The position numbers and the translations under genes were made by a program. This document shows positions 9,852 to 59,487 of a DNA stretch of 64,000 bases, piece after piece. This DNA is from an uncultured Candidatus Saccharibacteria bacterium (GTDB taxonomy: Bacteria > Patescibacteriota > Doudnabacteria > UBA920). Where the stretch lies: assembly GCA_964617815.1 (NCBI GenBank), contig CAZTXY010000001.1, positions 67,120 to 131,119 on the forward strand. The letters are read 5' to 3'. Position 1 is the first letter of the stretch. Every line of letters starts with the position of its first letter. The notes beneath the pieces are model-generated. The model was given only the letters and a program-made list of their open reading frames with translations. It was not told the DNA's origin and made no database searches.

Positions 9852-9856
9852 TAACG

Positions 9857-9923
9857 AGTCCTTAGTTCTTAGTGCTTATTACTTAGTCGCACTGTATCTC
9901 TGAGGACTGAGGACTAAGCACTT
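9857..9923. repeat. tandem heptamer array (CTTAG/CTGAGGA units)
   Basis: Reads agtccttag ttcttag tgcttat tacttag ... ctgagga ctgagga ctaagca. The two halves are partly inverted relative to each other. Confidence 0.6.
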
Positions 9924-9928
9924 TGTAT

Positions 9929-10984
9929 CTACCTTGGGATCTTACCAAAGTCTGTTGGAACCAAAACATCTTTAAGCATTTCCAGATCTTCCACCACTAC
10001 TCCAGTTCCGCGCACTACACATGTTAGGGGGTCGTCGGCCACAGTAACTAAAATTTTTGTCTCTTCATGAAGAAGTGTATCTAGTCCACGCAATAACGCC
10101 CCGCCACCAGCAAGGACAATCCCCTTATGCATAATATCAGAAATTATTTCTGGAGGAATTTCTTCAATAACTGATTTCACACTATTAACAATGGTTCGCA
10201 CCGATGTAGACAAAGCCTCCCTGACTTGCGAATCTGTAATTGTAACTTCTTTTGGTAGTCCTGTAACTAAATCTCTGCCCCGCATATGAGCAGATAAAGG
10301 CTCTGGCAATGGAAAAGCCGAACCAACTTGAATTTTAATGTCCTCGGCCGTGCGCTCACCTAATAATAAATTAAAATTATCACGCGCATACTGAATAATA
10401 TTTTGGTTCATCTCATCACCTGCAACCCGAACGCTCTTTGCCACCACCACGCCACCAAGGGACAGTACTGCAATTTCCGAAGTGCCACCGCCAATGTCGA
10501 TAATTAAACTTCCTTGCGCATCTTGCACTGGCAGACGCGCGCCAATGGCCGCAGCCATTGGTTCCTCAATTAGAAAAGCTTGGCGCGCTCCAGCATTTAT
10601 AGTTGCGTCTTGTACAGCACGTTTTTCTACCTCAGTCACGCCTGAAGGAATTCCTACCACCACTCGCGGACGTCTCAAAAAAGTATAAGTTTTATTGTGA
10701 ACTTTATCGATAAAATATCGAAGCATAGCTTCAGTAACTTCAAAGTCAGAAATTACTCCATCAACAAGCGGGCGAGTTGCCACAATATGGCTTGGCGTAC
10801 GGCCAACCATCCGGCGAGCTTCACTACCAATAGCCACAATCTGTTTAGTACGCTGGTTAACCGCCACCACAGATGGTTCATTGATAACAATACCCTTGCC
10901 TTTAACGTAGACGAGGGTATTGGCAGTTCCAAGATCTATACCAATGTCCTTGGAAAATCGGCTGAATAATGGGTCAAGAATCAT
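9929..10984 (-). CDS. mreB: rod shape-determining protein MreB
   Basis: Actin-like ATPase with the DLGTANT and LAGGGALL motifs. Confidence 0.95.
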   Translation of the reverse strand: MILDPLFSRFSKDIGIDLGTANTLVYVKGKGIVINEPSVVAVNQRTKQIVAIGSEARRMVGRTPSHIVATRPLVDGVISDFEVTEAMLRYFIDKVHNKTYTFLRRPRVVVGIPSGVTEVEKRAVQDATINAGARQAFLIEEPMAAAIGARLPVQDAQGSLIIDIGGGTSEIAVLSLGGVVVAKSVRVAGDEMNQNIIQYARDNFNLLLGERTAEDIKIQVGSAFPLPEPLSAHMRGRDLVTGLPKEVTITDSQVREALSTSVRTIVNSVKSVIEEIPPEIISDIMHKGIVLAGGGALLRGLDTLLHEETKILVTVADDPLTCVVRGTGVVVEDLEMLKDVLVPTDFGKIPR

Positions 10985-12240: not shown

Positions 12241-12246
12241 GAATAA

Positions 12247-12280
12247 AGTACTCTGTACTAAGTACTAGGTACTCAGTACT
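12247..12280. repeat. tandem heptamer array AGTACTN x5
   Basis: Reads agtactc tgtacta agtacta ggtactc agtact. It lies between the proS start and the rseP stop. Confidence 0.7.
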
Positions 12281-12287
12281 ATAATAT

Positions 12288-13454: not shown

Positions 13455-13473
13455 GAGTACTTAGTACTTAGTT
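13455..13473. repeat. tandem heptamer AGTACTT x2
   Basis: Reads gagtacttagtacttagtt. It lies between the rseP start and the frr stop. Confidence 0.55.
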
Positions 13474-16661: not shown

Positions 16662-17639
16662 ATGGGAGTTCGAACTAAAATTATTGCTATTATCGGACCA
16701 ACTGCCAGCGGAAAAAGTGAGTTGGCTGTAGAAATTGCCAAAAAACTCAACGGTGAAATTATTTCAGCAGATAGCCGTCAAGTCTATCGCGGCATGGATA
16801 TTGGAACTGGTAAAGTGACGGGAGCCTGGCATAGCATTCCATGCTCCTGTCATCCTGAGCTTGTCGAAGGATCTCTCCATAATTCTCAAAGCTCTAAAAA
16901 AATATACCTTTACAAATCTATTCCTCATTACGGTATTGATATCGCCAGTCCTAGCACCCAATGTTCAGTAGCGAAGTTTCAAAGTTACGCCAAAAAAACT
17001 ATCGCTGAAATTATTGCTCAAGGAAAAATTCCAATAATTTGCGGGGGCACTGGTCATTGGGTAGATGCAGTATTGTTCGATCAAAACTTGCCAGCTGTTA
17101 AACCCGACCTTAAACTTAGAAAAAAGCTTGAAAAACTTAATACTGCCCAGCTTTTTAATAAATTAACAAAACTAGATCCGCGCCGCGCAGAAAATATTGA
17201 CGCAAAAAATCCACGGCGTTTAATTCGCGCGCTTGAAATTATTGCGAGCACCGGAAAACCAGTTCCGGCATCAAATGCAGAAACAAAATACGATGTGCTC
17301 TGGCTTGGTATTGCTCACGACAAAATCATCTTAGATAAACGAATCGATAAACGATTGGATGGATGGCTAAAATCTGGCATGATCAAAGAAGTAACAAACT
17401 TACATGCAAATGGCTTGTCTTGGAAACGGCTTGAGGAATTTGGCTTAGAATACAAATTTGTTGCACAATTTCTTCAACACAAACTTTCCATAATTGAAAT
17501 GAGGACTTTAACCGCTACCGCAATCAAACAATACGCCAAACGACAGATGACTTGGTTTAAGCGCAATAAAAATATTCACTGGATAAAATCAAAACTAGAG
17601 GCCTTATCCCGAGCCAAAAACTTTTTACATCACAATTAA
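16662..17639 (+). CDS. miaA: tRNA dimethylallyltransferase
   Basis: P-loop GPTASGKS and IPHYGIDI. It contains an extra segment of about 25 aa encoded by a MITE-like repeat fragment. Confidence 0.9.
   Translation: MGVRTKIIAIIGPTASGKSELAVEIAKKLNGEIISADSRQVYRGMDIGTGKVTGAWHSIPCSCHPELVEGSLHNSQSSKKIYLYKSIPHYGIDIASPSTQCSVAKFQSYAKKTIAEIIAQGKIPIICGGTGHWVDAVLFDQNLPAVKPDLKLRKKLEKLNTAQLFNKLTKLDPRRAENIDAKNPRRLIRALEIIASTGKPVPASNAETKYDVLWLGIAHDKIILDKRIDKRLDGWLKSGMIKEVTNLHANGLSWKRLEEFGLEYKFVAQFLQHKLSIIEMRTLTATAIKQYAKRQMTWFKRNKNIHWIKSKLEALSRAKNFLHHN
16847..16875 (+). repeat. MITE-like element fragment (left half) inside the miaA coding sequence
   Basis: ctgtcatcctgagcttgtcgaaggatctc matches the element at 31287 at 27 of 29 nt. 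Confidence 0.7.
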
Positions 17640-17656
17640 AAAAGCAAATCAAAAAA

Positions 17657-17695
17657 CCATCTCTAATTCGCGCGGATTAGAGATGGTTTTTGTTT
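17657..17695 (+). terminator. Rho-independent terminator after miaA
   Basis: 11-bp stem ccatctctaat/attagagatgg followed by tttttgttt. Confidence 0.8.
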
Positions 17696-17696
17696 A

Positions 17697-17819
17697 CAGA
17701 ACTTATGGGCTTGGATTGAGTACGAGGCATTTTGCGAGGACTTTTGGAGGCGTAGTCAGACTACGGCGACAAAAACCTCAGCAAAATAACAAAGTAATCG
17801 GCCAAGCCCATAAGTTCTG
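17697..17819. repeat. 123-bp element with perfect 18-bp terminal inverted repeats
   Basis: cagaacttatgggcttgg at 17697-17714 is the exact reverse complement of ccaagcccataagttctg at 17802-17819. Confidence 0.85.
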
Positions 17820-17821
17820 TT

Positions 17822-19321
17822 TTATTCTGATAATTTTTTCTTAAGCAGTTCATTAACCACAGAAGGATTACCTTTTCCTTTTAACTCCTTCATTGCCATT
17901 CCAACCAGAAAACCAAAACTTTTCTCTTGCCCAGCTTTATAGTCAGTCACGGCTTTTTCGTTTTCTAAAATAACTTTTTCCACGGCTTGCAAAATTGCAC
18001 CTTCGTCGCTAACTTGCTCGAGCCCTAAATCCAAAACAATATTATCTGGCTCGCCGCCTTTTTCATACATTACTTTAAAAACTTGCTTGGCTGCACTACC
18101 AGAGATTTTTCCTTGTTCAATCAATTTCACCAATTCTGCCATATTTTCTGCACTAACAAGTGATTCATCTGGATTTTTATGTTCTGCGTTCAATAATGCG
18201 CTAAAATCCTGCAAACACCAGTTTGCCGCTGTTTTAATCAACTTAGATCTATCTAAACCATCACCATCTTGCTCTATCCACTCGTCAAGCTCACTAATCA
18301 CATCTTCAAAGTAATAGTTAAGGTCTTTCCACACAAGCAAGTTCTCAATATCTGCTTCCGGCAAACTATATTCATCTTTAAAACGAATTCGCTTGCTAGC
18401 CGGCAATTCCGGTAAGTTGCTACGCAAATCATCTAAATATTCTTTTGTGAAATGCAAAACTGGTAAATCTGGATCTGGGAAATAACGATAATCGTTGGCC
18501 TCTTCTTTACTTCGTTGTTCAACGGTGATGTTATCTTTTTCGTTCCAACCCATAGTAACCTGTTTTGGCATGCCGCCATTTTCCAAAATTTCTGTCTGGC
18601 GTTTAATTTCGTAATTAATTGCGCTTTCTGCAAATTTAAACGAGTTGATATTTTTGACTTCAACTTTGTACTTAGGAAGAGTTGTCTCCCCTGGCTTACG
18701 CACCGAAATGTTTGGCTCACAGCGCATTGTCCCTTTTTCCATATCTGCGACACCTGCTCCAACGTAACGAACAATACTGCGAAGTTCCTGCAAAAAAATT
18801 CGTGCTTCTTCAGCACTTTCAATATCCGGCTCGGTGACAATTTCCAAAAGTGGACAACCAGCGCGGTTATAGTTTACTAAAGAATACGGCAAGCCCTCAG
18901 GATGAATATTCTTTCCTGCATCTTCTTCTAGGTGAGCACGAGTAATCCGAATGCGCTTAGGTTTTCCTTGTACCATAATATCAACATAACCTGCTTGCGC
19001 AATTGGCTCATCGTACTGAGAAATTTGATACCCTTTTGGAAGGTCTGGATAAAAGTAATGCTTACGGTCGAACTTCGAATATTCGTCAATTCTACAATTA
19101 AGTGCCAAGCCAACCATAACACCCAAGCGCACAGCTTCTTGGTTCACAACTGGAAGTGTTCCAGGTTCGGCAGTCACCACCTCATCTATATTTACGTTTG
19201 GCTCAACAGTGTCAGGATTATTTGGCGCGCTCGAAAACATCTTGCTCTTGGTAGCAAGCTGAACGTGAATTTCCATGCCAATCACCGGCCTATATGTATT
19301 TAATTCTTTTTCTTCTGCCAT
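17822..19321 (-). CDS. gatB: Asp/Glu-tRNA amidotransferase subunit B
   Basis: 499 aa with typical GatB sequence and a C-terminal YqeY-like domain. Confidence 0.95.
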   Translation of the reverse strand: MAEEKELNTYRPVIGMEIHVQLATKSKMFSSAPNNPDTVEPNVNIDEVVTAEPGTLPVVNQEAVRLGVMVGLALNCRIDEYSKFDRKHYFYPDLPKGYQISQYDEPIAQAGYVDIMVQGKPKRIRITRAHLEEDAGKNIHPEGLPYSLVNYNRAGCPLLEIVTEPDIESAEEARIFLQELRSIVRYVGAGVADMEKGTMRCEPNISVRKPGETTLPKYKVEVKNINSFKFAESAINYEIKRQTEILENGGMPKQVTMGWNEKDNITVEQRSKEEANDYRYFPDPDLPVLHFTKEYLDDLRSNLPELPASKRIRFKDEYSLPEADIENLLVWKDLNYYFEDVISELDEWIEQDGDGLDRSKLIKTAANWCLQDFSALLNAEHKNPDESLVSAENMAELVKLIEQGKISGSAAKQVFKVMYEKGGEPDNIVLDLGLEQVSDEGAILQAVEKVILENEKAVTDYKAGQEKSFGFLVGMAMKELKGKGNPSVVNELLKKKLSE

Positions 19322-19386: not shown

Positions 19387-19839
19387 TTAGACCAGGCATA
19401 ATGTTATAAATTGATACCAATCTTTACAATTTTGAGAAAAGAAAATATAAAATACGAGGCCCAAAATAACAGCTATGACCAGAATGCCCAAATATCCCAA
19501 TGCCTTTTTCCACATAACTGTATTATTTGTTAGCTTTAATAAGAAGATCATAACGGGATACAACACAAATAAATTAATCACTGCGCCTACGTATGGCAAT
19601 AATACTGATACCTCTCCAAGACTAAGTTTTTCAGTAATAACTATTACTAAAGTCCAAGGTAAACCCAATATAACAAGAACAAATAAAGCCGCAGCTCCAT
19701 CCAGCCCATCCTGACCTGTAGCTTTCATAAAATAAATAGTCAAAAATACAAGTGAGACAAAAAATGGTAACGGAATCCATTTCTTCAGCCCGAGACTACT
19801 CTTAACTGCTACTGGTTTTAAAATATTTTGTTCTTCCAT
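19387..19839 (-). CDS. hypothetical polytopic membrane protein
   Basis: Start trimmed to MEEQNIL. It has 4-5 TM helices and lies between gatA and gatB. Confidence 0.45.
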   Translation of the reverse strand: MEEQNILKPVAVKSSLGLKKWIPLPFFVSLVFLTIYFMKATGQDGLDGAAALFVLVILGLPWTLVIVITEKLSLGEVSVLLPYVGAVINLFVLYPVMIFLLKLTNNTVMWKKALGYLGILVIAVILGLVFYIFFSQNCKDWYQFITLCLV

Positions 19840-19849
19840 ATTTGACCAA

Positions 19850-21307
19850 TTATAATTTAGGATGTTTCTTGTGCCAATCAGTAGCTTGTTGATAGGCATA
19901 ACCCACATTAAAGATTTTCTGTTCGCCCCACTGCGGTCCAATAATCTGCAAACCAACTGGTAAGTCTTCGCTGAATCCACAAGGAACTGACAATGCTGGA
20001 AGGCCTGCGAGGGACCCCGGAATGTTCAGCTGATCTGCAATATAACCAAATAATGGATCCTGCGCCGCATGTCCAAGCTTTGCCGCAACGCTTGGTGTAG
20101 ACGGGCAAGCCAAGACATCAACCTGCTTAAAGACTTCCTCAAACTCATTGATAATCAAACGTCGAACTCTTTGAGCTTTTTTATAATACGCATCATAGTA
20201 ACCAGCACTCAAAACATAGGTGCCTGTCATAATTCTGCGCTTAGCTTCATCACCAAAACCTTCTGCACGAGACTTTTGGTAAACTTCCATCAAATCTTTG
20301 GCTTCGTCAGTAACATGACCGTAACGAATGCCATCGTAGCGCGCCAAGTTAGAGCTAACCTCACTTGGGCAAACAATCGCATAGACTAAGGATCCGTATT
20401 TGGTGTTGGGCAAATCAACTTCAACCAAAGTTGCTCCTTGTTTTTCCAGTTCTTTGATCGCATCCATAACAGCCTGCTTAACGCCTGCTTCCATGCCTTC
20501 TATAAAGTACTGTTTAGGGATACCAACTTTTACTCCTTTTAAGTCTGTGTTTAAATTTTTGAAATAATTTTCTACGTCCCGATGTCCAGTCGTGCCATCT
20601 TTAGGATCCTGTCCAGACATTATTTCTGCAATAATCGCCAAGTCACTAACAGAGTAAGCCACCGCACCAATGCTGTCTAAAGACGAACCCATGGCCGCAA
20701 CCCCGTAACGACTAACTCGGCCGTAGGTTGGTTTCCAGCCAGAAATTCCAGTTAAGCTGGCTGGCTGGCGAATACTGCCACCGGTTTCAGTGGCTAATGC
20801 CCACGGACTAAGTCCCGCACTAACGCTTGCTGCCGAACCACTAGAAGAACCACCAGGCATGCGAGTGGTGTCCCATGGATTTTTTGTCGCGCCATAAGCA
20901 GAAGTTTCTCCGCTCGAGCCATGCGCAAACTGATCAAGATTAGTTTTACCAAGCAAAACTGCTTTTTGTTCTTTAAGTTTGGCGATAACCGTAGCGTCGT
21001 ATGGAGGAATGTAACCTTCTAAAATCTTTGAAGCTGCGGCGGTTTGAATACCTCGAGTCATAAATAAATCTTTTGCAGCAAACGGGATTCCGGTTAGAGG
21101 GAAATTCTCGCCAGGACTTGCGATAAATTCATCTGCTTCTTTAGCCTGCTCCAAAGCTTCTTTTTCTGTCACTGTAATAAAACTGTTTAACTTTGGATCA
21201 AGTTCTTTTATGCGTGCCAAAAAATACTTCGTCAATTCTTGTGACGAAACTTTTTTCTCATCAAGAAGTTTGCGTAATTCAGTTAATTCAAGAAATTCGT
21301 AATTCAT
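19850..21307 (-). CDS. gatA: Glu-tRNA(Gln) amidotransferase subunit A
   Basis: Amidase signature GGSSSGSAA. Confidence 0.95.
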   Translation of the reverse strand: MNYEFLELTELRKLLDEKKVSSQELTKYFLARIKELDPKLNSFITVTEKEALEQAKEADEFIASPGENFPLTGIPFAAKDLFMTRGIQTAAASKILEGYIPPYDATVIAKLKEQKAVLLGKTNLDQFAHGSSGETSAYGATKNPWDTTRMPGGSSSGSAASVSAGLSPWALATETGGSIRQPASLTGISGWKPTYGRVSRYGVAAMGSSLDSIGAVAYSVSDLAIIAEIMSGQDPKDGTTGHRDVENYFKNLNTDLKGVKVGIPKQYFIEGMEAGVKQAVMDAIKELEKQGATLVEVDLPNTKYGSLVYAIVCPSEVSSNLARYDGIRYGHVTDEAKDLMEVYQKSRAEGFGDEAKRRIMTGTYVLSAGYYDAYYKKAQRVRRLIINEFEEVFKQVDVLACPSTPSVAAKLGHAAQDPLFGYIADQLNIPGSLAGLPALSVPCGFSEDLPVGLQIIGPQWGEQKIFNVGYAYQQATDWHKKHPKL

Positions 21308-21317
21308 GTCTGTGCAA

Positions 21318-21348
21318 CTAGTACTGAGTACTAAGTACTTAGTACTTG
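21318..21348. repeat. tandem heptamer array AGTACTN x4
   Basis: Reads ctagtactg agtacta agtactt agtactt gg. It lies between the gatA start and the gatC stop. Confidence 0.7.
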
Positions 21349-23113: not shown

Positions 23114-23164
23114 TCCATCTCCTCCTGCTGAAAATAGAATCCACGCCGTCTTTGACCCACAAAA

Positions 23165-23207
23165 TGTCGGACAAAAGAAAACTCGCTACTTTTTGAAGTA
23201 GCGAGTT
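23165..23207 (-). promoter_or_regulatory. terminator-like hairpin in the 5' leader of the Cys-rich gene (possible attenuator)
   Basis: 11-bp stem aactcgctact/agtagcgagtt. On the minus strand it is followed by tttcttttg, 52 nt before the ATG. Confidence 0.4.
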
Positions 23208-23418
23208 AACCTTTGTACAAAATTCTGCGTTTATATCAGTACGAGGTTGCTACTTCATTTTCCCAAAACTTAATGACACCAACAATGGAGGCCATTGCTA
23301 GAGTAGTGTAAGTAATTTGGTTACGATGAGTAGCTATATTCATATTTGTAAATCAAAATAAGCTTAAACAAAGTCCAAACATCTGTCAAATAATTTATCC
23401 ACAGCCTTAAACTACTAA

Positions 23419-23548
23419 CTAGTTCCGCCAGCCGGCGAATAGTGACTAGTGACAAGGATTTTGCTATAATAAATCCATATTAATATGTTCTGCGTGCTTT
23501 GTATCTTTACTTGGCTACTTGGAACTGTCCGCCGGCTGGCGGAACTAG
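23419..23548. repeat. 130-bp element with perfect 19-bp terminal inverted repeats; contains the lemA promoter
   Basis: ctagttccgccagccggcg at 23419-23437 is the reverse complement of cgccggctggcggaactag at 23530-23548. The extended -10 tgctataat is inside the loop. Confidence 0.85.
23462..23470 (+). promoter_or_regulatory. extended -10 (TGnTATAAT) promoter for lemA-htpX
   Basis: tgctataat lies 89 nt upstream of the lemA ATG. Confidence 0.5.
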
Positions 23549-23558
23549 GAACTAAAAT

Positions 23559-24104
23559 ATGATTTTCATCTATATTATCGGAGCTTTGGCTATCATTGCC
23601 ATCGTGCTCTACAACTCACTTATCAAAAGCCGTAACCGCGTTGATGAAGCTTGGAGCGATATTGAAGTCCAGCTCAAACGTCGCTATGACCTCATCCCCA
23701 ACTTAGTTGAAACAGTTAAAGGTTACGCTAAGCAAGAAAGTTCTGTCCTTGAGAACGTCACACGTGCTCGTTCTGCTGCTATGGGTGCTGGTTCTATGGA
23801 AGAAAAACTTAAAGATGAAAACCAGCTTTCTGGGGCGTTAAAAAGCCTGTTTGCAGTTGCTGAAAGTTATCCTGACTTGAAATCAAACCAAAACTTTATG
23901 CAAATGCAAAGCGATCTCACCGACACTGAAGATAAAATTCAAGCTAGCCGTCGCTTCTACAACGGCACTGTTCGTGACTTTAATACTAAACTTCAAGTCT
24001 TCCCAACTAATATTTTTGGAAGCATGATGGGTTTTAAAGTTCGCGAATTCTTCGATATCGACGAGAAAGGCCCAGAAGGCCAAAACGTCAAAGTCCAGTT
24101 TTAG
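23559..24104 (+). CDS. lemA: LemA family protein
   Basis: N-terminal TM helix plus a conserved LemA domain. Confidence 0.85.
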   Translation: MIFIYIIGALAIIAIVLYNSLIKSRNRVDEAWSDIEVQLKRRYDLIPNLVETVKGYAKQESSVLENVTRARSAAMGAGSMEEKLKDENQLSGALKSLFAVAESYPDLKSNQNFMQMQSDLTDTEDKIQASRRFYNGTVRDFNTKLQVFPTNIFGSMMGFKVREFFDIDEKGPEGQNVKVQF

Positions 24105-25842: not shown

Positions 25843-26691
25843 TTACCGAATTGGATGTTTGAAAGCAAACCGACTGGTTTGCTCAGCGACCCAAGCATAG
25901 TTCTCCGCCAGCTTTTCCAAGTCACCGTCAGTGACCTTGGCCAAATCGCGGTAGACTTGCTTGTCTTTGAATTCTTGCTCATCGCGGAAGCGAATCCGCC
26001 AGGAGTCGTTGGTGATGTCGTCGGCAACCAGGATCTTCCCTGTAGCCGAATCGTACCCACACTCGATCTTCATGTCCCACAGGACAATTTCGAGTTCGTA
26101 CAACGCCACCTCCAGAATGCAAAACACGGCGATGGCAAGGTTGCCCAACTTCTGGACGTCATCGGCCGAAACAGTTCGGCCGCCGCGAGTCACAATTGCC
26201 GGAAGTTCACAGAGGAATCCTTGTTCCAAAGGCTTCGAAGCCACGTACATGTCCCAAGTTTGAGACACGTAGTCGTAGACGACCATCGGATCGTGATTAG
26301 CGTCATCCTTGAGGTAAAACTCAGGAGTCAATACTTCAAAGCGAGTGCCTTGAGCAACGTCGGGGTGGCGTTTGCAGTGCGACCCCGTAGCCAACCGCCG
26401 AATCACAATCTCAGCGGGGATCATGTCAACGCGATGCGCAATCATCCCCGTCAATCCAAACTCCCGAATGAAGTGAGTCGGCACACCGTGGTCGTTGAGA
26501 TGCCCCAAACAGTTCATGCTCGTTTGGTTGCACCACACGCCCTTCCCAGGCAAGGTATCGTGCCGAGCGCCGTCACCAGCGGTGATGTCATCTTTCTGGA
26601 AGATGACGACTCTGTTCGGATTTTCTGAAGTTCGGACCACTTTGGTCTTTCCTTCAATGAGAATCCTGCTCTTGTTCATCAAGTCATCCAT
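25843..26691 (-). CDS. purC: phosphoribosylaminoimidazole-succinocarboxamide (SAICAR) synthase
   Basis: LIEGKTKVV, GVPTHFI and KDDANHDPMV align with E. coli PurC. The start is MDDLMNK, with GGAGGG upstream. High-GC. Confidence 0.9.
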   Translation of the reverse strand: MDDLMNKSRILIEGKTKVVRTSENPNRVVIFQKDDITAGDGARHDTLPGKGVWCNQTSMNCLGHLNDHGVPTHFIREFGLTGMIAHRVDMIPAEIVIRRLATGSHCKRHPDVAQGTRFEVLTPEFYLKDDANHDPMVVYDYVSQTWDMYVASKPLEQGFLCELPAIVTRGGRTVSADDVQKLGNLAIAVFCILEVALYELEIVLWDMKIECGYDSATGKILVADDITNDSWRIRFRDEQEFKDKQVYRDLAKVTDGDLEKLAENYAWVAEQTSRFAFKHPIR

Positions 26692-27214
26692 CTTGCTTCC
26701 CTCCGTTTGAACTTTGAACCCCCACTTGCACTGACTTCCGATGAGTTTCGGAATATGTGAGAAGGTTACTGCTAACTGCTGGGTCCACCAGACCAACAGC
26801 AGTGCAAGCTGCTAAGCCGGCGTTGTGCAGTCCAGCTGAGTCAAGACCCAGCACGCAAACTGGCACACCTGGCGGCATTCGGACCATCGAAAGAAGTGAA
26901 TCCATGCCAGAAAGAATGTCAGCGCTTAGCGCCACACCAAAAACCTGCGCTCGGTTTGAAACATGCGAAGCAATTGCTCCGGGTAAGGCCGCCGCCATTC
27001 CAGCAACAGCAATAAACACGACCGTACCAGTCTGGAGCTTGTGCTCGCAGTACTGGCGCAAATCTTCGGGATTGCGGTGAGCGGAAATGATCGAAAGTTC
27101 CCAAGTGACTCCAACCCCGTTGAGGATTGGAAACAACTGAGACAATTTTACCATCTCCAAATCACTTGCACTCCCCAAAACAACAACCACGCTATGGCAA
27201 GCATCCAGAGACAC
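26684..27214 (-). CDS. purE: PurE-family mutase/carboxylase (N5-CAIR mutase or AIR carboxylase)
   Basis: VVVLGSASD, SAHRNP and AGMAAALPG align with PurE. The GTG start has AAGGAGG 5 nt upstream. Its TGA overlaps the purC ATG in ATGGATGA. Confidence 0.85.
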   Translation of the reverse strand: MSLDACHSVVVVLGSASDLEMVKLSQLFPILNGVGVTWELSIISAHRNPEDLRQYCEHKLQTGTVVFIAVAGMAAALPGAIASHVSNRAQVFGVALSADILSGMDSLLSMVRMPPGVPVCVLGLDSAGLHNAGLAACTAVGLVDPAVSSNLLTYSETHRKSVQVGVQSSNGGKQDG

Positions 27215-27266
27215 AACGCCCTCCTTGCTTCGCAGAGTTGCTCCTTGGAGCAGTAGAACCTGCCCT

Positions 27267-27295
27267 ATAGTAGAACACTGGCTTAAAAAAGGCAA
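27267..27295 (-). promoter_or_regulatory. candidate promoter TTGCCT-17-TACTAT for purE-purC
   Basis: It sits between the upstream terminator and the purE SD. Confidence 0.5.
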
Positions 27296-27309
27296 GATTC
27301 TCCTTCTTT

Positions 27310-27357
27310 TTTATTAAAAATGAAATGCGGCCGTCTCGATTTCTCGAAACGGCCGCC
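27310..27357 (-). terminator. Rho-independent terminator after paralog 2
   Basis: Stem gcggccgt...acggccgc followed by a T-run on the minus strand. Confidence 0.65.
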
Positions 27358-27372
27358 TAAAACCAAAGCCGA

Positions 27373-27951
27373 CTAGATGTCAGATTCACCCTCGCCCTCA
27401 TCCTCCGCACCGGTGGCTTGACTTGCCAAGTACTTCTCGACGCACTCATCGAAGAACTCAGAAAGCCCTCCCAAGCCAGAATGAACAGCGGAAAAACCGA
27501 AGTTCCCCGCATCCATGGCCCCTGTCAGTTCATTGGACTTTGTTCGCAGTTGGGACGGCTTCAACGTTCCCGAAGCCATCTCGTTGTAAAGACCCGTGGC
27601 CTTTACAAACATTTCCTCGTACCTGAGTAAGCTAATCCGACCCTTCAGTCCATTGAAGTAGAGGCCGTAAACATCACGTGCGTTCTGCTCGGCCAGCCGT
27701 TTCTCCTTAGACCAAGTGTCAGGAATTGGGCGCAAAGAATTGAAAGCCTTGCCAAACCCCTCTGCTTGCTTGGTCCAGAACTCAATGCTCCTCTGCTCGG
27801 GATGAAAGCCACTTGCCACAAGGGCCGAAAGCATGTCCATGCACGGCTTGTGCTTCCCTTGAAAGTGCCACTTGGCAAGTTGCCACGTTGCCATACACAC
27901 CACCATTACAAGAATAGTAGTGACTACTGCGACCTGGTCAGTCTGTAACAT
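27373..27951 (-). CDS. membrane-anchored protein of unknown function, paralog 2
   Basis: 192 aa with an N-terminal TM helix. GGAGG lies 7 nt upstream. It is the paralog of 25150..25710. Confidence 0.7.
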   Translation of the reverse strand: MLQTDQVAVVTTILVMVVCMATWQLAKWHFQGKHKPCMDMLSALVASGFHPEQRSIEFWTKQAEGFGKAFNSLRPIPDTWSKEKRLAEQNARDVYGLYFNGLKGRISLLRYEEMFVKATGLYNEMASGTLKPSQLRTKSNELTGAMDAGNFGFSAVHSGLGGLSEFFDECVEKYLASQATGAEDEGEGESDI

Positions 27952-27958
27952 CGCTTAT

Positions 27959-27980
27959 TTCCTCCGGCTGAAATGTCGAC
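27959..27980 (-). promoter_or_regulatory. conserved 22-nt 5' leader including the SD (copy 2)
   Basis: Identical to 25717-25738. Confidence 0.7.
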
Positions 27981-27985
27981 CACCA

Positions 27986-28014
27986 AGTATAGTTTAAAAA
28001 AACGCCAAAGTCAA
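27986..28014 (-). promoter_or_regulatory. sigma70-type promoter TTGACT-17-TATACT for paralog 2
   Basis: On the minus strand, ttgact then 17 nt then tatact. It matches the paralog-1 promoter hexamers exactly. Confidence 0.7.
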
Positions 28015-41941: not shown

Positions 41942-42436
41942 TTATCGAATATTAATTGATTGTTCATTTTCAACTGCTTCTTCTGGAATTATATCATATG
42001 GAGGACAAAAACTAAGTCCATAATTTTTTTGATTATCTTGTTTAGAACTACCTGGTAAAGACAAGCCTAATGATACTGACAACTTACAAGCATCGGCTTT
42101 TTCAATATCAAGTCTTTTTAAAAAATCCACTTCAGCAAGTTTTCTATTTTCTAAAATAGGTTTAGCCATAATTAAAATGTAGAAAGTTTGGTTATCATCA
42201 TCAAAAAATGTAATATATTTATCATTTTCTTCTATAAATACATCGCCAGTCTCTTTTGAAAGAACCGAGGGCAATTGATGAAAATCATTTACAGCAACGA
42301 TTGCACCAGAAGATGTTTCTAATTTTAGTTTCGCAGTTTTTTCTGAATCCTTGCTAAGATAGTAAAAGACACTCGCTAAAACTAAGAGCAACAAAATTAT
42401 TATCCCTATTATTATAATTATGTTTTTTTTAGTCAT
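41942..42436 (-). CDS. small membrane-anchored protein in the T4SS-like cluster
   Basis: Start trimmed to MTKKNIIIIIG. One TM helix. Confidence 0.45.
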   Translation of the reverse strand: MTKKNIIIIIGIIILLLLVLASVFYYLSKDSEKTAKLKLETSSGAIVAVNDFHQLPSVLSKETGDVFIEENDKYITFFDDDNQTFYILIMAKPILENRKLAEVDFLKRLDIEKADACKLSVSLGLSLPGSSKQDNQKNYGLSFCPPYDIIPEEAVENEQSINIR

Positions 42437-42438
42437 AT

Positions 42439-44673
42439 TTATTGTCCGCACTTTCCAGAGGAATACTCTAAATAATAACGTGAACCAGTAACAACATAAT
42501 TGCGGGTTTGGCAATAAGTCGCGCTTGCCGCACAATCATTGGTCACATTACTTCCAGGTATACAGGCTGTTTGAGCACCGCTCGTAAAAGGACATTCCCA
42601 AAAGAATTTTCCTGGACAAGAATTACTTGATCTCCAAGGGCCTCCAGGACCTTCACCAGCATTGTAGGCAGCCAAAATATTCCCAATATTATTCCCAATA
42701 TGTGGTTGGTTTGGAATTTGTGATAAATATTTAGTACCACAAAAAATATTTGCTCGCGGGTCACAAGCATCACTAAACGAACCGCATCCTAATCCAGCCC
42801 ATGTTCCTGGTATAATTTGCATTAAACCTTTAGCCCCAGCGGAGCCGTATCCAGTCTGACAATTTCTCCAACCACTTTCTTTTTGAATTACTGCCCTAAT
42901 TAAACTAATATCAACACTATATGCGCGGGAAGCCTCAGCAACAATTCTATCTAAATCGCCATGATTACAAGTAGCAGTTCCCCCTAAATCACATCCGCCA
43001 CTACAAACACCACCGCCAGAACCCTGAACAATTACACACTGTCCTGATCCAGGACCAGGCTCAACACCGCCACCCCCACCTGTCCCGCCACCGCCGAAGA
43101 GTCCTCCGCCGCCAGCACTAAGCGATAACTTTCCACAAATTTCGCTGAGAGCTTGAAATTTTTCTAAACCGGGAACAAAATAAGTAGCGCCGGGAACGTA
43201 AGAAGTTATATTGCCTGCTGTAGAAATCCACTGCGCTCCAGGCAAATTACAAATGACAACAAAAAATAATGCAATCCAAAGAGCTATCCCTATTAAGTAT
43301 ATCGCATTTAGCACTCCTGTGATAAGCATTTTTATCCACCCCATTGGCTGACGAATCCCAATAATAGAACCAACTAAAAATGCATCTAAAACAATTAGCG
43401 GGAGAAAGCCGATGGGGATAAGCACAATAGAAAGTAAACACAAAATGCATATAGCAATCAACCACACCGCCATATCGTCAAGGCCAGACTTAATGACAGC
43501 CTTAGCACTTTCGATAGCAATATTAATAGCAACACCAACACCGGGTGCAACATTGGCGGCAGTAGCCGCTGTTTCAGCAACTGCAGCTGCGGCATCAATA
43601 GCAATATCGGCACCTAACTTAGCAGTCTCTGTAACTTTACCAAGACCACTTGCTTCTTCTATCTTATGTTTGCGATTTGCAATGTCAGCACCTGCATCAA
43701 TTACAGCGCCACCAATGGACAATGCCCCAGAAATATTCGCAGCTTTACTCCCAGCTTCTGCCCCCGCTACACCAGCTTTTATAGCATTACCAGTAATTCC
43801 AACTCCGGCTTTAGCAGCTGTTCCAGCCACTTCTGCAGCCTCAGCTCCACCACGAATAGCTCCTGCAGCCGCACGTTCGGCCCCGGCTCCCCGGCCCACA
43901 GTCCGAGCAGCTCCGCCTAAGCGAGCTGCATCTTCAACACCTTCTTCAGCTAACTCTTCGCCTGCTTTAACAGATGCTTTTCCCGGAGCACCGGGCTGCC
44001 CTTCAACAGTTTCTGATTTTGGAACGTCATCTGGAGACTCAGCCTTTGCTTTTGCTTGATCACGCTCTTTTACGCGCTTATCGTAATCTTTCTTGTGACG
44101 CTCTGCAAATTCAACCGGGCCTTCCTTTTCCTCTTTTTGTTGCCCTTGTTGTGCGTCGTTTCCTGTTTCTGCTTTTTTTTCTGAACCATCTCCTTCTTCA
44201 TCCGGACTTTTTAGCCGATCTTCAGTTAAACTTTGATCATTTTTTTGTGCTTGGTCGTCTAGAGCATTTTCTTTAGAAAAAGATTCATTGTTCGAAGAAG
44301 TTTGTTGTTGATTAATATTTTGATTATCATTGAAAGCTGATGCATTATCTCCGCCTGTATTGCTAGGTGTGGTCTTGCCACGAAAAGGACTAACTGTGCC
44401 AGGTTGTGAAGAGGACCCCCCATTTCCTTTTTGCTTAAAATCAACTTGAGTAACCTTAGTTTTTACTTTTGGATCATTAGAAACAACCGTGACAGGTTTA
44501 TCACTTTCTGCATCTCCACTTTTTTTTGGCACAACGCGCATAGCAGCGCGGGGCTGGCCATCACCCTGACTGCCTCCTTGAATAACAGAAAAGCCTGGCT
44601 GCTCTCCAGCCGATTGTTCTTCGTTATCTACATCGGAGTCGGTTGGCAGTCTTGCCAGGTTATCATTCGCCAT
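42439..44673 (-). CDS. VirB1-like lytic transglycosylase fusion protein
   Basis: Disordered N-terminal region, Ala-rich region, TM helices and a Gly-rich linker. The Cys-rich C-terminal domain carries SLT motifs QKESGW, GLMQI and AYNAG. Confidence 0.7.
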   Translation of the reverse strand: MANDNLARLPTDSDVDNEEQSAGEQPGFSVIQGGSQGDGQPRAAMRVVPKKSGDAESDKPVTVVSNDPKVKTKVTQVDFKQKGNGGSSSQPGTVSPFRGKTTPSNTGGDNASAFNDNQNINQQQTSSNNESFSKENALDDQAQKNDQSLTEDRLKSPDEEGDGSEKKAETGNDAQQGQQKEEKEGPVEFAERHKKDYDKRVKERDQAKAKAESPDDVPKSETVEGQPGAPGKASVKAGEELAEEGVEDAARLGGAARTVGRGAGAERAAAGAIRGGAEAAEVAGTAAKAGVGITGNAIKAGVAGAEAGSKAANISGALSIGGAVIDAGADIANRKHKIEEASGLGKVTETAKLGADIAIDAAAAVAETAATAANVAPGVGVAINIAIESAKAVIKSGLDDMAVWLIAICILCLLSIVLIPIGFLPLIVLDAFLVGSIIGIRQPMGWIKMLITGVLNAIYLIGIALWIALFFVVICNLPGAQWISTAGNITSYVPGATYFVPGLEKFQALSEICGKLSLSAGGGGLFGGGGTGGGGGVEPGPGSGQCVIVQGSGGGVCSGGCDLGGTATCNHGDLDRIVAEASRAYSVDISLIRAVIQKESGWRNCQTGYGSAGAKGLMQIIPGTWAGLGCGSFSDACDPRANIFCGTKYLSQIPNQPHIGNNIGNILAAYNAGEGPGGPWRSSNSCPGKFFWECPFTSGAQTACIPGSNVTNDCAASATYCQTRNYVVTGSRYYLEYSSGKCGQ

Positions 44674-44691
44674 AAATTTGTACTAACCTAA

Positions 44692-46536
44692 TTATCCTGC
44701 AAACTGGTCTTTGCTTTCTTGAATTTCCAGTAACTGTTTCGGGTCTGTTGTAATTATTTGGTCTTCCATGTAGGAAGCGTAAATTTTGATAGCCGCATGC
44801 TTAAGTCCAGCAAAAAATATTCCTTCACCAACATCACTTTCAAGTAATAAATATTTCTCACCTTCAGTTAAAAAGAAAGTTTCAGCCACAATATCCACAG
44901 ACGCAGGACTTTGCTTAAGAAGTAACTGAATTGAAGAGTTTGTGACAATTGGTTTGCCGTACGGACTACTCATAAAATCTGCGACATCCTGAGTGATTGT
45001 TGTAAGACCAAGATAATATTTACGAGCGCGCTTGGCAATTCCATACACAAACCGAGCGGAGTCTTCGTGTTGCATAAGTATCCAAGCTTCATCAAGTACT
45101 AAGATACGGCGCTTCAGCTCGCTTCTAACCACATTCCAAATATGTCCTAAAATTAAATACATTGCCACTGGCCTTAGCTCGTCTTCTAAATCGCGAATTG
45201 AAAAAACTAAAAGCTGATTATTTAAAACAACGTTGCTTGGCTGGTTAAGAAGCCCAGCAAAAGTTCCTTCGGTAAACTTCGAGAGACGCTGAGCTAAACT
45301 TTCCGCACCCACCATATCACCTAAGACAGAAACTAAATCACTCATCACCGGATAGTCAGTGGTCTTAAGTTCCATGCCAGGAGTAATATCTTTGTTCGCA
45401 TACGCCTGCCAAATAGCTTTATCAAGTAGCGCTTCTTCAGTTGGATCTAGTTTACCTAAAACTAAATTCATCAGCCCCAAAAGTCCAATCACCGCACTGC
45501 GCATGGTGTCACTACTGTCTTCACCTTCAAGACCAATAGGTAAGTCAAAAGGATTAATGCGGTAGTCTGAGTTAAGCGAGATGCTTAAATATGTTCCACC
45601 AACCGCGTCGGCTAAATGTTTATATTCATTTTCAGGATCCACAATTAAAACTTCAATGCCAACCATCAAAGAACGCAGGACTTCTAATTTCACCGCATAC
45701 GATTTTCCGGCACCAGACTTAGCAAAAATTACAAAATTAGCATTTTCCATCTTAAACCGGTCAAATAAAATTAAACCGTTGTTGTGCCGGTTAATCCCGT
45801 AAAGTACTCCATCATTTCCAGTTAAATCCGAAGACACAAAAGGAAAAGTTGTCGAAAGGGGGCTGGTATTTAGATTATTTGCTACACCTAAATCGTCTAA
45901 TTGCATTGGCAATGTCGAGTTAAACCCAGGTTGCATTTGCATTAAGGCTCTCTTTGTAACCACGAGCTTCGCACCAAGTGCACTTTCAAGAATAGTTGAC
46001 TCTTTGTCGAGTTCGCGAAGATCTTTAGCATACAAAGTAAAATACAAAGCAAAACGAAAATACTTTTCAGTACCTTGCAATAAATTATCGCGCAATTCCT
46101 CGACGTCGTGATATCCTGTTTCCAGTAATGGATCACGTACCAAACCTTTTTCTCGGTTAATCATCATTTGTGAACCAATCTCTCCAACCTTCCCTTTCAA
46201 CTTTCTCAAGATTGTTCCAGAGTCAATTGGGTAAATAAACATTGAGACATCTAATGCCCCTTGAGAGTTGATAACAAACGACAACCAGTTCGAAGATAAA
46301 TAACGTGGGTAGGTTAAGACAAAAAAACTACGCGCAAATTTTCCATTCAACTCAAAATGGTCAGCCTCAAACTTCAAGCTTGCAGGCGCTATAAGGTCTT
46401 TAAGCGAAGTTAAACCTTGCTTATAGCTATCTTCAAGAGTACTAAGCTCTTTTCGAGTCGCCTCTTTACTCTTGCGCTCCTCAAGCTCATGCTTTTTCGC
46501 TTCTAATTGTTCTTCTGAAAGGTTAAACCAAGACAT
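44692..46536 (-). CDS. VirB4/TraC-like conjugal transfer ATPase, C-terminal ATPase part
   Basis: Walker A FAKSGAGKS and the Walker B region VLDEAW. Family-level resemblance to VirB4/TrsE. Confidence 0.8.
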   Translation of the reverse strand: MSWFNLSEEQLEAKKHELEERKSKEATRKELSTLEDSYKQGLTSLKDLIAPASLKFEADHFELNGKFARSFFVLTYPRYLSSNWLSFVINSQGALDVSMFIYPIDSGTILRKLKGKVGEIGSQMMINREKGLVRDPLLETGYHDVEELRDNLLQGTEKYFRFALYFTLYAKDLRELDKESTILESALGAKLVVTKRALMQMQPGFNSTLPMQLDDLGVANNLNTSPLSTTFPFVSSDLTGNDGVLYGINRHNNGLILFDRFKMENANFVIFAKSGAGKSYAVKLEVLRSLMVGIEVLIVDPENEYKHLADAVGGTYLSISLNSDYRINPFDLPIGLEGEDSSDTMRSAVIGLLGLMNLVLGKLDPTEEALLDKAIWQAYANKDITPGMELKTTDYPVMSDLVSVLGDMVGAESLAQRLSKFTEGTFAGLLNQPSNVVLNNQLLVFSIRDLEDELRPVAMYLILGHIWNVVRSELKRRILVLDEAWILMQHEDSARFVYGIAKRARKYYLGLTTITQDVADFMSSPYGKPIVTNSSIQLLLKQSPASVDIVAETFFLTEGEKYLLLESDVGEGIFFAGLKHAAIKIYASYMEDQIITTDPKQLLEIQESKDQFAG

Positions 46537-46540
46537 ATAG

Positions 46541-47245
46541 TTAACTCACTTCATTATTATTTCCAACAATCGCTATTTCTCCTAATTTTCCAGCATCGAT
46601 TAGCGGTCCCGACTCAAAATTATACGAATTATAAAATAGCTCAATCAGCTGTTCGGTATTTAGTCGCACTGCACGCAAACTCATCCCACCTAAGTTATTG
46701 GCAACACTACCAGCCCGTTCATCAAGTAAAGTTCTAACTTTTTCAAAATTTTCCAGCCTTTGGGCAATTTCCCGTGTTTTAGTACTTTTAAATAATCTTG
46801 CAAAAAATCCCGCTTTAGGAGGAAAAATATTTTGGGGCAATGAAATAATAATGTAAAAATTTTTATTCATTATATTTGCGCTCTCAACTAAATGGCTAAT
46901 AAACTCAATGTACTCACCAGTTTGAATGCGTAGCAATTCATTAGGCTGTTTTTCCATTAAGTGTTTTAAACTTTCGGTGTAGTCACCAATATCCATTCTT
47001 CGACTCTGCATTAAAACTTGGATTGGAAAATCCAACGAATTAATAAACCGCTGATATGCAACAATTAAAGCATCTTGTTCATCCTGACTCTTAAGATCAA
47101 AGTTTGTGCTTGAAACAGCCACCACGGCACGCAGGGTTCCGTCTTCCATAACAACACAGTCGTTGCGAATTTCATAAAATCGCAAAAATGATTGCGTTGG
47201 TTTTAAAATTGGTTTATTTGATTTTTTGTTTGAAAAAAGTCCCAT
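46541..47245 (-). CDS. VirB4-like N-terminal domain encoded as a separate ORF
   Basis: TAA-CTAT-ATG junction with the downstream ATPase ORF. The sequence pattern resembles the VirB4 N-domain of Gram-positive T4SS. Confidence 0.5.
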   Translation of the reverse strand: MGLFSNKKSNKPILKPTQSFLRFYEIRNDCVVMEDGTLRAVVAVSSTNFDLKSQDEQDALIVAYQRFINSLDFPIQVLMQSRRMDIGDYTESLKHLMEKQPNELLRIQTGEYIEFISHLVESANIMNKNFYIIISLPQNIFPPKAGFFARLFKSTKTREIAQRLENFEKVRTLLDERAGSVANNLGGMSLRAVRLNTEQLIELFYNSYNFESGPLIDAGKLGEIAIVGNNNEVS

Positions 47246-47253
47246 AAAATAAA

Positions 47254-47700
47254 TTAAAGTGGTTTATCTGCCAAAGCTGTCTCTGCAGCACCTTGCTGTG
47301 AAAGAGTGTAATTAAGTTTATGAAGCCTGACCGTTGCACTTTCCTGCTCTATTTTTGGAAGAGTAGTATCTGCTTGTTTTGTTTCTTGATCCATTAAAAT
47401 TTGGTGAGAAGAATCTAGCCCTTGTTTTGAAAAAATTAGAACTCTTGGGCTGACCATATACTGCAAATACGGGTAGAAGGTTGAATATAAAGGCCGACCG
47501 TTAATTTTTGCGAAAGTCAAAATTAACGCTGGCATTCCAAAAATTAAAAAGGCAAAGATGCCAACAATAATACTTTTTGTTCCTGTATAAAGCAAAAATG
47601 TCAGTGCGGCACCTGCACCTAAAATACCAAACTGCTTTAAAGTCAGTCCAGCTATGATTTTGTCTTCTACATCTGTAAATTGTGGGACGCTATATTGCAT
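47254..47700 (-). CDS. VirB3/PrgI-like small membrane protein
   Basis: 148 aa with two adjacent TM helices, sitting directly upstream of virB4. Confidence 0.4.
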   Translation of the reverse strand: MQYSVPQFTDVEDKIIAGLTLKQFGILGAGAALTFLLYTGTKSIIVGIFAFLIFGMPALILTFAKINGRPLYSTFYPYLQYMVSPRVLIFSKQGLDSSHQILMDQETKQADTTLPKIEQESATVRLHKLNYTLSQQGAAETALADKPL

Positions 47701-47744
47701 TCGTCTCTTTTTAGTATATCACACTATTTGCTTAATTGATCGCT

Positions 47745-48707
47745 CTAATTTACTTGAGTAGCACGCAAGACATCAATAACTGCTTCAAAATCTGTTTTAG
47801 ACATCCCGCCTAAATTTGCTGTAGTATTTGGGTCTGAATGCATCAATGCTTGCTGGCCTGCTTTCATATACTCTTCATACAAAGGACTTTTTTCTAACAA
47901 AAATAAAACTGAAAAATATCCAAACTTTTTAACTAAGGACCTCATGGCTTCAAGTAAATCATCTTTCCCAAGTGACATCACTGTCGACCGATTTAAGTGC
48001 TCTACATCTTCTAAGGATTTAAGCTCGAGCGGAACTTCACTTGAAAAATTAGTTTTCGCCACTTCCATTTTCTGGGGCAACTCACTTAAAGAGCTATGCT
48101 TAAGCAAAGCGCTATAGTCAGTCTGCTTAGTGACAACTTTTTGCAAATGAACAGGGGTTATTGGCTTCAACCCTGCTTTCACCAAAGGTAGGCCTGCGGT
48201 AGGGTTAGGACGAGCATTTATTGATGCCAAAGGCGCTGTCGCAATACTAGGTCTTGCAGGAGAGTTAAGTTGATGATCAAAATCTTCTTGACCACTTTCC
48301 AATTCTTTTTCTGTCATGACCTGTGCCAAACTTTTTGCAAAAGCCCCTGTAGTTTGACCCTTGTCTTCGTGCCTAAATGTTTTCACCTGAGAACTTAAAG
48401 TTTGCTGAGGAGCACCCAAATTATTTGGTAAATTAGTTATATGATGAAGGCGGTTTGCAGTTAGAGGAGCAGAAGCCACTGGCTTAAGAGATGCTGAAAT
48501 TGGCCCAGGTTTTGGGCGCTGTTGTGTTTCTGGTAATTTTGCAATGACCACGCTAGAAGACGGCGCAGATAAAATAGTGACTAAGTCACTTAGCTGTTTG
48601 TCATTCATCACCGGCAAACTCTCAAGCCATGTTGTTTTTTCATCGGGCTGGAGTAATTTTGAAAAGGCAATAAGATTTTTAATTTTTTCTAGCGGTATAG
48701 AAGTCAT
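47745..48707 (-). CDS. hypothetical protein in the T4SS-like cluster (P/S/T-rich)
   Basis: 320 aa with no recognised domain. Confidence 0.4.
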   Translation of the reverse strand: MTSIPLEKIKNLIAFSKLLQPDEKTTWLESLPVMNDKQLSDLVTILSAPSSSVVIAKLPETQQRPKPGPISASLKPVASAPLTANRLHHITNLPNNLGAPQQTLSSQVKTFRHEDKGQTTGAFAKSLAQVMTEKELESGQEDFDHQLNSPARPSIATAPLASINARPNPTAGLPLVKAGLKPITPVHLQKVVTKQTDYSALLKHSSLSELPQKMEVAKTNFSSEVPLELKSLEDVEHLNRSTVMSLGKDDLLEAMRSLVKKFGYFSVLFLLEKSPLYEEYMKAGQQALMHSDPNTTANLGGMSKTDFEAVIDVLRATQVN

Positions 48708-48715
48708 TGTTTGCC

Positions 48716-50095: not shown

Positions 50096-50098
50096 AGA

Positions 50099-59376: not shown

Positions 59377-59383
59377 ATATAAC

Positions 59384-59418
59384 AGTACTTGGTACCTAGT
59401 ACTGAGTACTTAGCACTA
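59384..59418. repeat. tandem heptamer array AGTACTN x5 (left arm)
   Basis: Reads agtactt ggtacct agtactg agtactt agcacta. Confidence 0.7.
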
Positions 59419-59447
59419 ACTTATATAATACTAAACTTTAACAAAAA

Positions 59448-59484
59448 TCCCTGCGCCAAAGGCGCAGGGATTTTTGTTATTTTT
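59448..59484 (+). terminator. Rho-independent terminator after the CHAP hydrolase gene
   Basis: Stem tccctgcgcc/ggcgcaggga followed by tttttgttattttt. Confidence 0.8.
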
Positions 59485-59487
59485 AAA

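Follow-up and report, generated by a model that had tools for sequence, protein, structure and literature searches.

A probably mobile, low-copy hairpin repeat between gatB and miaA in Candidatus Doudnabacteria

Palindromic insertion elements and the locus

ERIC sequences are imperfect palindromes of roughly 127 bp, and REPINs are doublets of REP sequences that form hairpins and are mobilised by RAYT transposases (Y1, PF01797). Correia elements have conserved terminal inverted repeats (TIRs) of 26 bp and a TA target duplication. The attC sites of integrons have the consensus ends RYYYAAC...GTTRRRY, an unpaired central spacer and extrahelical bases, and IS608 inserts 3' of TTAC without duplication. 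ERIC is present in tens to hundreds of copies per genome, and its co-transcribed copies at the 3' ends of genes change mRNA levels; transcribed Correia elements fold into a hairpin that is cleaved by RNase III (PMC10969869). We found no description of MITE-like or hairpin repeats in the literature on the candidate phyla radiation, and a prokaryote-wide MITE survey does not mention Patescibacteria.

Here we describe a palindromic element in a 64-kb stretch of Doudnabacteria DNA (hereafter the window, meaning the whole stretch that was analysed). By its best protein matches the organism is Candidatus Doudnabacteria-like and a member of the Patescibacteria, and the GatB and MiaA of the window are 100% identical to proteins of a 147,678-bp NCBI MAG contig, of which the window is a part. 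The element belongs to a broad known kind, the small palindromic intergenic insertion elements, and is neither ERIC nor REPIN by sequence. It is probably a small, low-copy mobile hairpin repeat of the ERIC/Correia/REPIN kind, a reading based on its absence from close relatives together with a diverged copy at a different place in a further relative.

The known family closest to the element in size, position and behaviour is ERIC. The two are of similar size and are intergenic yet transcribed (for our element, as predicted from its position), inside operons or just after genes, and both have internal-insertion variants and differ in presence or absence between strains. ERIC differs in having many copies per genome, against one seen in the 64-kb window, and in being conserved over its full length, whereas the termini of our element are fully diverged between copies. 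The enterobacterial ERIC and REP families were also rejected for lack of sequence similarity, given that blastn against 5,426 E. coli genomes (28 Gb) gave no match.

In the maintenance of its hairpin the element most resembles REPINs, which are also long extragenic hairpins, of about 100 nt, selected as hairpins through compensatory changes. The sequences of REPIN families vary by lineage, and their mobilising enzyme is a single-copy gene located elsewhere. However, REPINs reach tens to hundreds of copies per genome, against two loci in about 330 kb here; they have conserved REP modules at the base of the hairpin and a variable tip, whereas here it is the tip and core that are conserved, and the base that varies; and there is no RAYT among the 46 Pfam-scanned ORFs of the 64-kb window. 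The Correia elements of Neisseria (CREE) and other TIR-type MITEs are similarly short and non-coding, with terminal inverted repeats and insertion polymorphism, but in our element the TIR sequence differs between copies and no duplication is evident. In a classical MITE family the terminal repeats are conserved; this family shows the opposite, with diverged ends and a conserved core.

The hairpin between miaA and gatB

The genes miaA and gatB are convergent in the window, on the + and - strands respectively, and enclose a terminator and the element:

16662-17639, + strand: miaA (IPP transferase; Pfam PF01715, E = 1.8e-61)
17652-17691, no strand: bidirectional intrinsic terminator of miaA and gatB, 20-bp stem preceded by an A-run and followed by a T-run
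17696-17820, no strand: palindromic element of 125 nt, a single long imperfect hairpin defined by its inverted repeat
17696-17714, + strand: left terminal arm ACAGAACTTATGGGCTTGG, 19 nt, perfect
17802-17820, + strand: right terminal arm CCAAGCCCATAAGTTCTGT, 19 nt, perfect
17822-19321, - strand: gatB (Pfam GatB_N and GatB_Yqey)

The preliminary description of this DNA had placed an element of 123 bp with perfect 18-bp terminal inverted repeats between the miaA terminator and the gatB stop codon. The coordinates bear out that placement. The T-rich tail of the terminator, TGTTT (17691-17695), overlaps the last base of the stem and reaches the first base of the element, and the gatB stop codon (17822-17824) starts 1 nt past the right arm. 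The terminator hairpin itself is found in alleles with and without the element and is not element sequence. An inverted-repeat search of the window recovered the arms as perfect repeats with 87 nt between them, as had been described, but each arm is one base longer, at 19 nt, so that the full extent is 125 nt.

The claim that the interior is non-palindromic did not hold: the same search found it to be an imperfect palindrome with 29-nt arms that are 72% complementary, and the entire 125 nt therefore folds as one rod-like hairpin. Folding, which the preliminary description had proposed as a check, gave a single hairpin with a z-score of about -11 on either strand. With RNA parameters the + strand reaches -66.6 kcal/mol (z -10.9) and the - strand -59.8 kcal/mol (z -11.1), in each case with none of 200 shuffles as good; DNA parameters give -41.4 kcal/mol (z -11.1) for the + strand and -34.3 kcal/mol (z -9.7) for the - strand. 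The inverted repeat is real and well past chance.

The element extends over the last 125 nt of the 3' UTR of the gatB mRNA, ahead of the terminator, and on the + strand its place is past the miaA terminator, with TTTTATT directly after it. The only ORF that spans it (17683-17844, 53 aa) has no Pfam family and no homologues, and a small protein or toxin was rejected on these grounds; a chimeric six-frame translation of the element compared with 5.8 billion proteins likewise gave no match and no spuriously called ORF. No promoter-like site was found in 17500-18000, and an independent sRNA gene was rejected given the lack of such a site in 17500-17999. The Pfam scan of 46 window ORFs, which together with the genes named by synteny to relatives' loci make up the 60 window ORFs of at least 80 aa, revealed no transposase, integrase, Y1/HUH or TnpB. 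Within the window the terminal 18-mer occurs only at the two arm sites, even with up to three mismatches allowed (0.07 chance matches expected).

The window holds other long inverted repeats. One of them, at 59381-59506, is a 126-nt inverted-repeat structure built of AGTACT-type heptads, whose 20-nt arms (90% complementary) enclose a perfect 19-bp terminator hairpin at 59439-59479. Another, at 23419-23548, just upstream of lemA, has GC-rich inverted arms of 32 nt (CTAGTTCCGCCAGCCGGCG...; 84% complementary) around an AT-rich segment of 66 nt, and the region 23405-23560 folds at -61.6 kcal/mol (z -8.1). In the mreC-mreB spacer of two relatives there is an AT-rich hairpin of 136 nt with 52-nt arms, 81% complementary (approximately L015:3107-3242 and L016:3114-3249, where L-numbers are loci of Doudnabacteria relatives); the same spacer in the window is different and has 78 nt (9852-9929). 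Spacers of this clade therefore seem to acquire long hairpin inserts repeatedly. Kinship of the element with 23419-23548, 59381-59506 or L015:3107-3242 was rejected, as the alignments are at the level of shuffles and the model scores are those of a generic hairpin.

Tandem heptads (NAGTACT / GTACTNA, 3-5 units) fill the spacers between - strand genes at proS-rseP, rseP-frr and gatA-gatC; the sites listed are 12245-12281, 13455-13470, 21319-21347, 59381-59411, 59488-59517 and 9860-9925. The mreC-mreB spacer of the window has a related CTTAGTN heptad in inverted arrangement, and the frr-rseP spacer of L015 has the same heptads as the window. Distant Doudnabacteria lineages also have in common a hairpin (stem AAACTCGCTACT / AGTAGCGAGTTT) in the spacer by the upstream region of lemA (23160-23227 in the window and L022:2019-2090). 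Elsewhere, the - strand of 41942-54118 carries a type IV secretion or conjugation-like cluster (SLT transglycosylase, TraG/VirB4-like P-loop ATPase, PrgI), beside which lie several large ORFs without a Pfam family, one of 1339 aa. The GC content peaks locally at 26001-28000 (0.52, versus about 0.40 elsewhere), over purC and purE (SAICAR synthetase and AIR carboxylase).

Allelic variation and a homologous copy

The miaA-gatB spacer is polymorphic among relatives, as the comparison of orthologous spacers proposed in the preliminary description made clear. The empty allele is found in L001/L017, L015 and L016 (all from ENA samples, L001 being the same as L017), where a spacer of 57 nt contains the same terminator and nothing more. 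These relatives are the closest set, with GatB about 93% identical to that of the window. The filled allele is found in the window and in L002, L014 and L029, which come from three samples and have MiaA 95% and GatB 94% identical to those of the window. Two features distinguish the alleles:

17698-17821, no strand: segment missing in the empty alleles, 124 nt, directly 3' of TTTAC on the + strand
between 17776 and 17777, no strand: position of a nested 43-nt hairpin, GACTTGAGCTTGGCAGCTGGCAAAGCCACCTGCCATCAAGAGC, in L002/L014/L029, which turns the rod into a three-way junction

The empty spacers of L001/L017, L015 and L016 align cleanly on both sides of 17698-17821, and the BLAST alignment stops precisely at L015 11035|11036, the counterpart of window 17697|17822. 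At the empty site the terminator tail is joined straight to the gatB stop codon without a scar. Read in the direction of gatB, the insertion point lies between TAA and GTAAA. No direct repeat flanking the insert was found in the comparison of filled and empty alleles, in which the junction is slightly obscured by a substitution and a 1-nt indel in the neighbouring T-run. These alignments demonstrate about 124 nt of apparently foreign sequence between the gatB stop codon and a pre-existing bidirectional terminator in the lineage of the window.

Relative to the window, the element of L002/L014/L029 has the same arms, two substitutions and the extra 43-nt hairpin, and its fold is kept. The two substitutions are non-compensatory, and one disrupts a pair. 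Between the window and L002 the element is 98.4% identical and the left flank 95-96%, a difference that is not significant, and excess conservation of the element over the flank was rejected for this reason.

More distant Doudnabacteria have one to four other genes between gatB and miaA. Such outgroups cannot polarise gain versus loss at the locus, and taken alone, gain and precise loss are equally parsimonious there. The genes in the interval in L003, L021, L022, L023 and L020 are HD/YfbR-like, OMP decarboxylase, amidohydrolase, HbpS-like and phosphoribosyltransferase-like; the content varies by Doudnabacteria lineage, and there are no genes in this interval in the clade of the window.

The DNA around the element is a recombination mosaic, as seen from contrasts in identity. 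A stretch of gatB (18200-18500) is 97-100% identical to that of L015, from the empty-site lineage, with neighbouring DNA at 83-92%, whereas in miaA the L002 lineage is by far the nearer (94%, against 77% for L015/L001). Between gatA and gatB there is a small ORF of about 147 aa (19387-19853, - strand) without a Pfam family. It is also present in L001 and L002, and there is no gene call at this place in L015/L016; its DNA is only 67-72% identical between the window and L002.

A scan of the relatives for long inverted repeats revealed a second copy of the element at L020:2750-2870, a hairpin of 121 nt with 18-nt arms and 85 nt between them. L020 belongs to a different species (MiaA 76% identical to that of the window). 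The copy lies in the spacer between frr and rseP, with an outer arm that overlaps the stop codon of frr. This spacer is short and empty of the element in six other lineages (the window, L015, L003, L021, L026 and L027), and the copy is thus most simply a gain in the lineage of L020.

The two elements are homologous. Their local alignment score is 24, compared with 8.1 +/- 1.3 (maximum 15) for 2000 shuffles and 8-11 for three unrelated long hairpins aligned to the window element, and the match is orientation-specific (24 versus 14 reversed). The predicted fold of the L020 copy has the same order of stems, bulges and loops, and the alignment is nearly gapless. The conserved parts of the element in the window are as follows:

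17724-17728, + strand: purine-rich internal loop, 5' side; GAGGC in the window versus GCGGC in L020, conserved
17747-17769, + strand: conserved apical core GAG-G-CGTAGTC-AGA-CTACG-GC-GA, an apical hairpin flanked by a tandem GA/GA mismatch, common to the L020 copy
17788-17793, + strand: purine-rich internal loop, 3' side; AACAAA, the same in L020

The landmarks common to both copies are the apical CGTAG(T)...CTACG, the tandem GA/GA mismatch that flanks it, a TTTTG/CAAAA stem, the asymmetric purine-rich loop (G-N, G, G-C opposite A-A, C, A-A-A) and AACAAAG on the 3' side. Between these landmarks the stems differ in sequence and keep their pairing. Over 48 pairs, 96.5% of cells are standard pairs, and 17 of the 48 pairs have changed on both sides; none of 500 shuffles reached these values for pairing and covariation, and when the partners were slid only 30-44% were paired. 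The terminal stems of 18-19 bp are unrelated (TAAATTTGTTAGTTTGAG in L020 versus ACAGAACTTATGGGCTTGG in the window). In all three variants, with RNA and DNA parameters alike, the + strand folds better than the - strand. Three of the four wobble pairs lie on this strand, as do the G-A-rich loops, but relative to the genes reading into the element it is antisense; a strand preference drawn from two independent copies is only a hint.

Further copies were sought in several ways. The search for the 18-mer, suggested in the preliminary description, found no genuine further copy, whether in the window or among the genome, metagenome and viral collections, the scans of collections being exact-pattern searches with a terminal 18-mer that diverges between copies of the family. 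There were three exact matches in 185,579 representative genomes, five in metagenome contigs and none in viral contigs. We rejected these matches as chance, given that they are single arms in unrelated organisms without common flanks. Of two scans of viral contigs with core patterns, one was empty and the other gave a single chance match, which was rejected by the covariance model. That model (R1), built from alignment A1 of three variants (window, L020 and L014-type), found no additional copy over about 265 kb of relatives' loci, and with filters off it found only ordinary terminator hairpins, at no more than 21 bits, on the 64-kb window. The family total is two loci in about 330 kb of Doudnabacteria sequence, with one copy in the 64-kb window.

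Neither the remainder of the window nor the flanking loci resemble the element, which is therefore not a local duplication. The element also had no blastn match among phages, plasmids and E. coli genomes. Rfam 15 at the gathering score gave no match for the element in a search of the whole window. At E <= 10 or E <= 1 the window, L020 and L014 variants returned only far-sub-threshold hairpin look-alikes, and SRP, 6S, riboswitches and ribozymes were rejected, as none has a credible Rfam match to any variant.

Origin, movement and possible effects

The preliminary description had suggested a MITE or, alternatively, a large regulatory stem-loop or cruciform. The element is short and non-coding (125 nt, with an ORF that has no Pfam match or protein relative), it has terminal inverted repeats (19/19, perfect), and it has both an insertion polymorphism (filled and empty gatB-miaA) and a non-orthologous copy (frr-rseP in L020). 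The part of the suggestion that concerns mobility is supported by the polymorphic spacer and the L020 copy. The textbook MITE is not supported, because the 18-mer is unique within the window and the collections scanned, the TIRs are the least conserved part, there is no clear target-site duplication and the 64 kb hold no transposase. A classical MITE recognised by a TIR common to family copies was rejected, as the terminal stems of L020 are unrelated and the 18-mer was found nowhere else. It had also been proposed that a unique 18-mer together with a spacer conserved as a whole in relatives would speak against mobility; the 18-mer is indeed unique, but the spacer is not conserved.

We suspect, with a probability of about 0.55, that the element is one member of a family of non-autonomous palindromic insertion elements, not described before and low in copy number, that occurs in a subclade of Candidatus Doudnabacteria. 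The case for a mobile element comes from the foreign sequence, the clean empty site, the homologous copy at a non-orthologous place, the maintained complementarity, the variant with an internal insertion and the position after a stop codon.

Other readings have to be weighed against this one. The conserved unpaired nucleotides beside covarying stems (tandem GA/GA, the G-N/G/G-C versus AA/C/AAA loop, the apical CGTAG...CTACG) would be expected of a structured RNA that serves the host, that is, a cis-acting 3'-UTR or intercistronic element for protein binding or for control of processing or stability, recruited downstream of different genes. The functional site would then be the conserved core and loops, and the basal stem would need only to pair. 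The side hairpin, which varies at its helix as in many RNA families, agrees with this, and so does the orientation of the two copies, alike with respect to the - strand gene at whose stop they sit (gatB and frr), although chance would give such agreement half the time. We nevertheless regard a host-serving RNA as unlikely. Sister lineages do without the element at both loci, the genes that precede the copies are unrelated (gatB versus frr) and share no common pathway, and the better-folding strand, the + strand with its stabilising G-U pairs and purine-rich loops, is antisense to both. The lack of a promoter-like site in 17500-18000, the lack of an Rfam match and the two allelic substitutions, which do not compensate each other and of which one breaks a pair, also weigh against it.

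A mechanistic sub-case of the mobile-element reading is that the hairpin is a single-stranded-DNA recombination substrate, used by an HUH/Y1 transposase (IS200/IS605, RAYT) or by an integron-type tyrosine recombinase (attC-like). It would account for termini that are free to vary around a conserved structure and a core containing GTAG/CTAC, for the absence of a visible target duplication with insertion directly 3' of TTTAC in the window, and for a hairpin that is equally significant by DNA and RNA parameters. We consider it rather improbable, however, since TTAC precedes the L020 copy on neither strand, the 64-kb window encodes no Y1/HUH enzyme or integrase, and the lagging-strand template is, by GC skew, the - strand, whereas the + strand folds better. 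As an IS200/IS605 derivative the element was rejected because TTTAC precedes only the window copy and no TTAC the L020 copy, and because it is one continuous hairpin with perfect TIRs, with no Y1 gene in the window. As an attC site it was rejected because its ends (ACAGAAC...GTTCTGT) match the consensus only in AAC/GTT, the ends of the L020 copy depart from it, pairing is complete over the basal 19 bp where an unpaired central spacer and extrahelical bases are expected, and the window has no integrase. Least probable, and in our judgement very improbable, is a segment that never moved, either ancestral spacer or a relic of gene cargo between gatB and miaA, precisely deleted in the empty lineage. 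Long palindromes are prone to such deletion, the one to four extra genes in outgroups indicate that the interval was repeatedly remodelled, recombination mosaics cross the region, and at gatB-miaA alone one loss is as parsimonious as one gain. On the other hand, the outgroup intervals hold nothing similar to the element, the empty site has no scar where the terminator tail directly meets the gatB stop codon, and a loss at the gatB locus cannot explain the frr-rseP copy of L020 alongside six empty lineages.

If the element is indeed a mobile hairpin repeat, it would have been inserted by an enzyme encoded elsewhere in the genome. We suspect that this enzyme would recognise the folded core, not the terminal sequence, since it is the core and the purine-rich asymmetric loops that are conserved, not the terminal stem. 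The element would be transcribed as the last 125 nt of the gatCAB mRNA, as a long double-stranded hairpin, which could block 3' exonucleases or be a substrate for RNase III. On the + strand, the element with the TTTTATT that follows it could serve as a second terminator that catches read-through from miaA. Given that close relatives live without the element, any such effect on the host would be a side effect and not the reason for its existence. MITEs in 3' UTRs are documented in a review, as are RNase III or RNase E effects of co-transcribed Correia and ERIC elements (PMC10969869).

It is also conceivable, if doubtful, that the element represents a new class in Patescibacteria, a mobile hairpin specified by structure, in which the folded core, with its apical CGTAG/CTACG hairpin, tandem G-A pairs and asymmetric loop rich in purines, is recognised and propagated instead of terminal sequences. 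Such elements would insert without target duplication beside stop codons and could themselves take up nested hairpins. If true, this would point to an undescribed structure-reading recombinase or transposase, or to RNA-mediated spread, in tiny-genome bacteria that are otherwise poor in mobile DNA.

The finding is modest unless further copies or a mobilising enzyme appear. There are hardly any accounts of small palindromic repeats from the candidate phyla radiation, and a family with a conserved core and fold but free ends would bear on the recognition and movement of such elements. The three alleles, filled, empty and nested-hairpin, can serve directly as a marker for strains in these Doudnabacteria populations. 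The family would also bear on how much turnover of non-coding DNA streamlined genomes tolerate, and on the shaping of 3' ends in essential operons, gatCAB among them.
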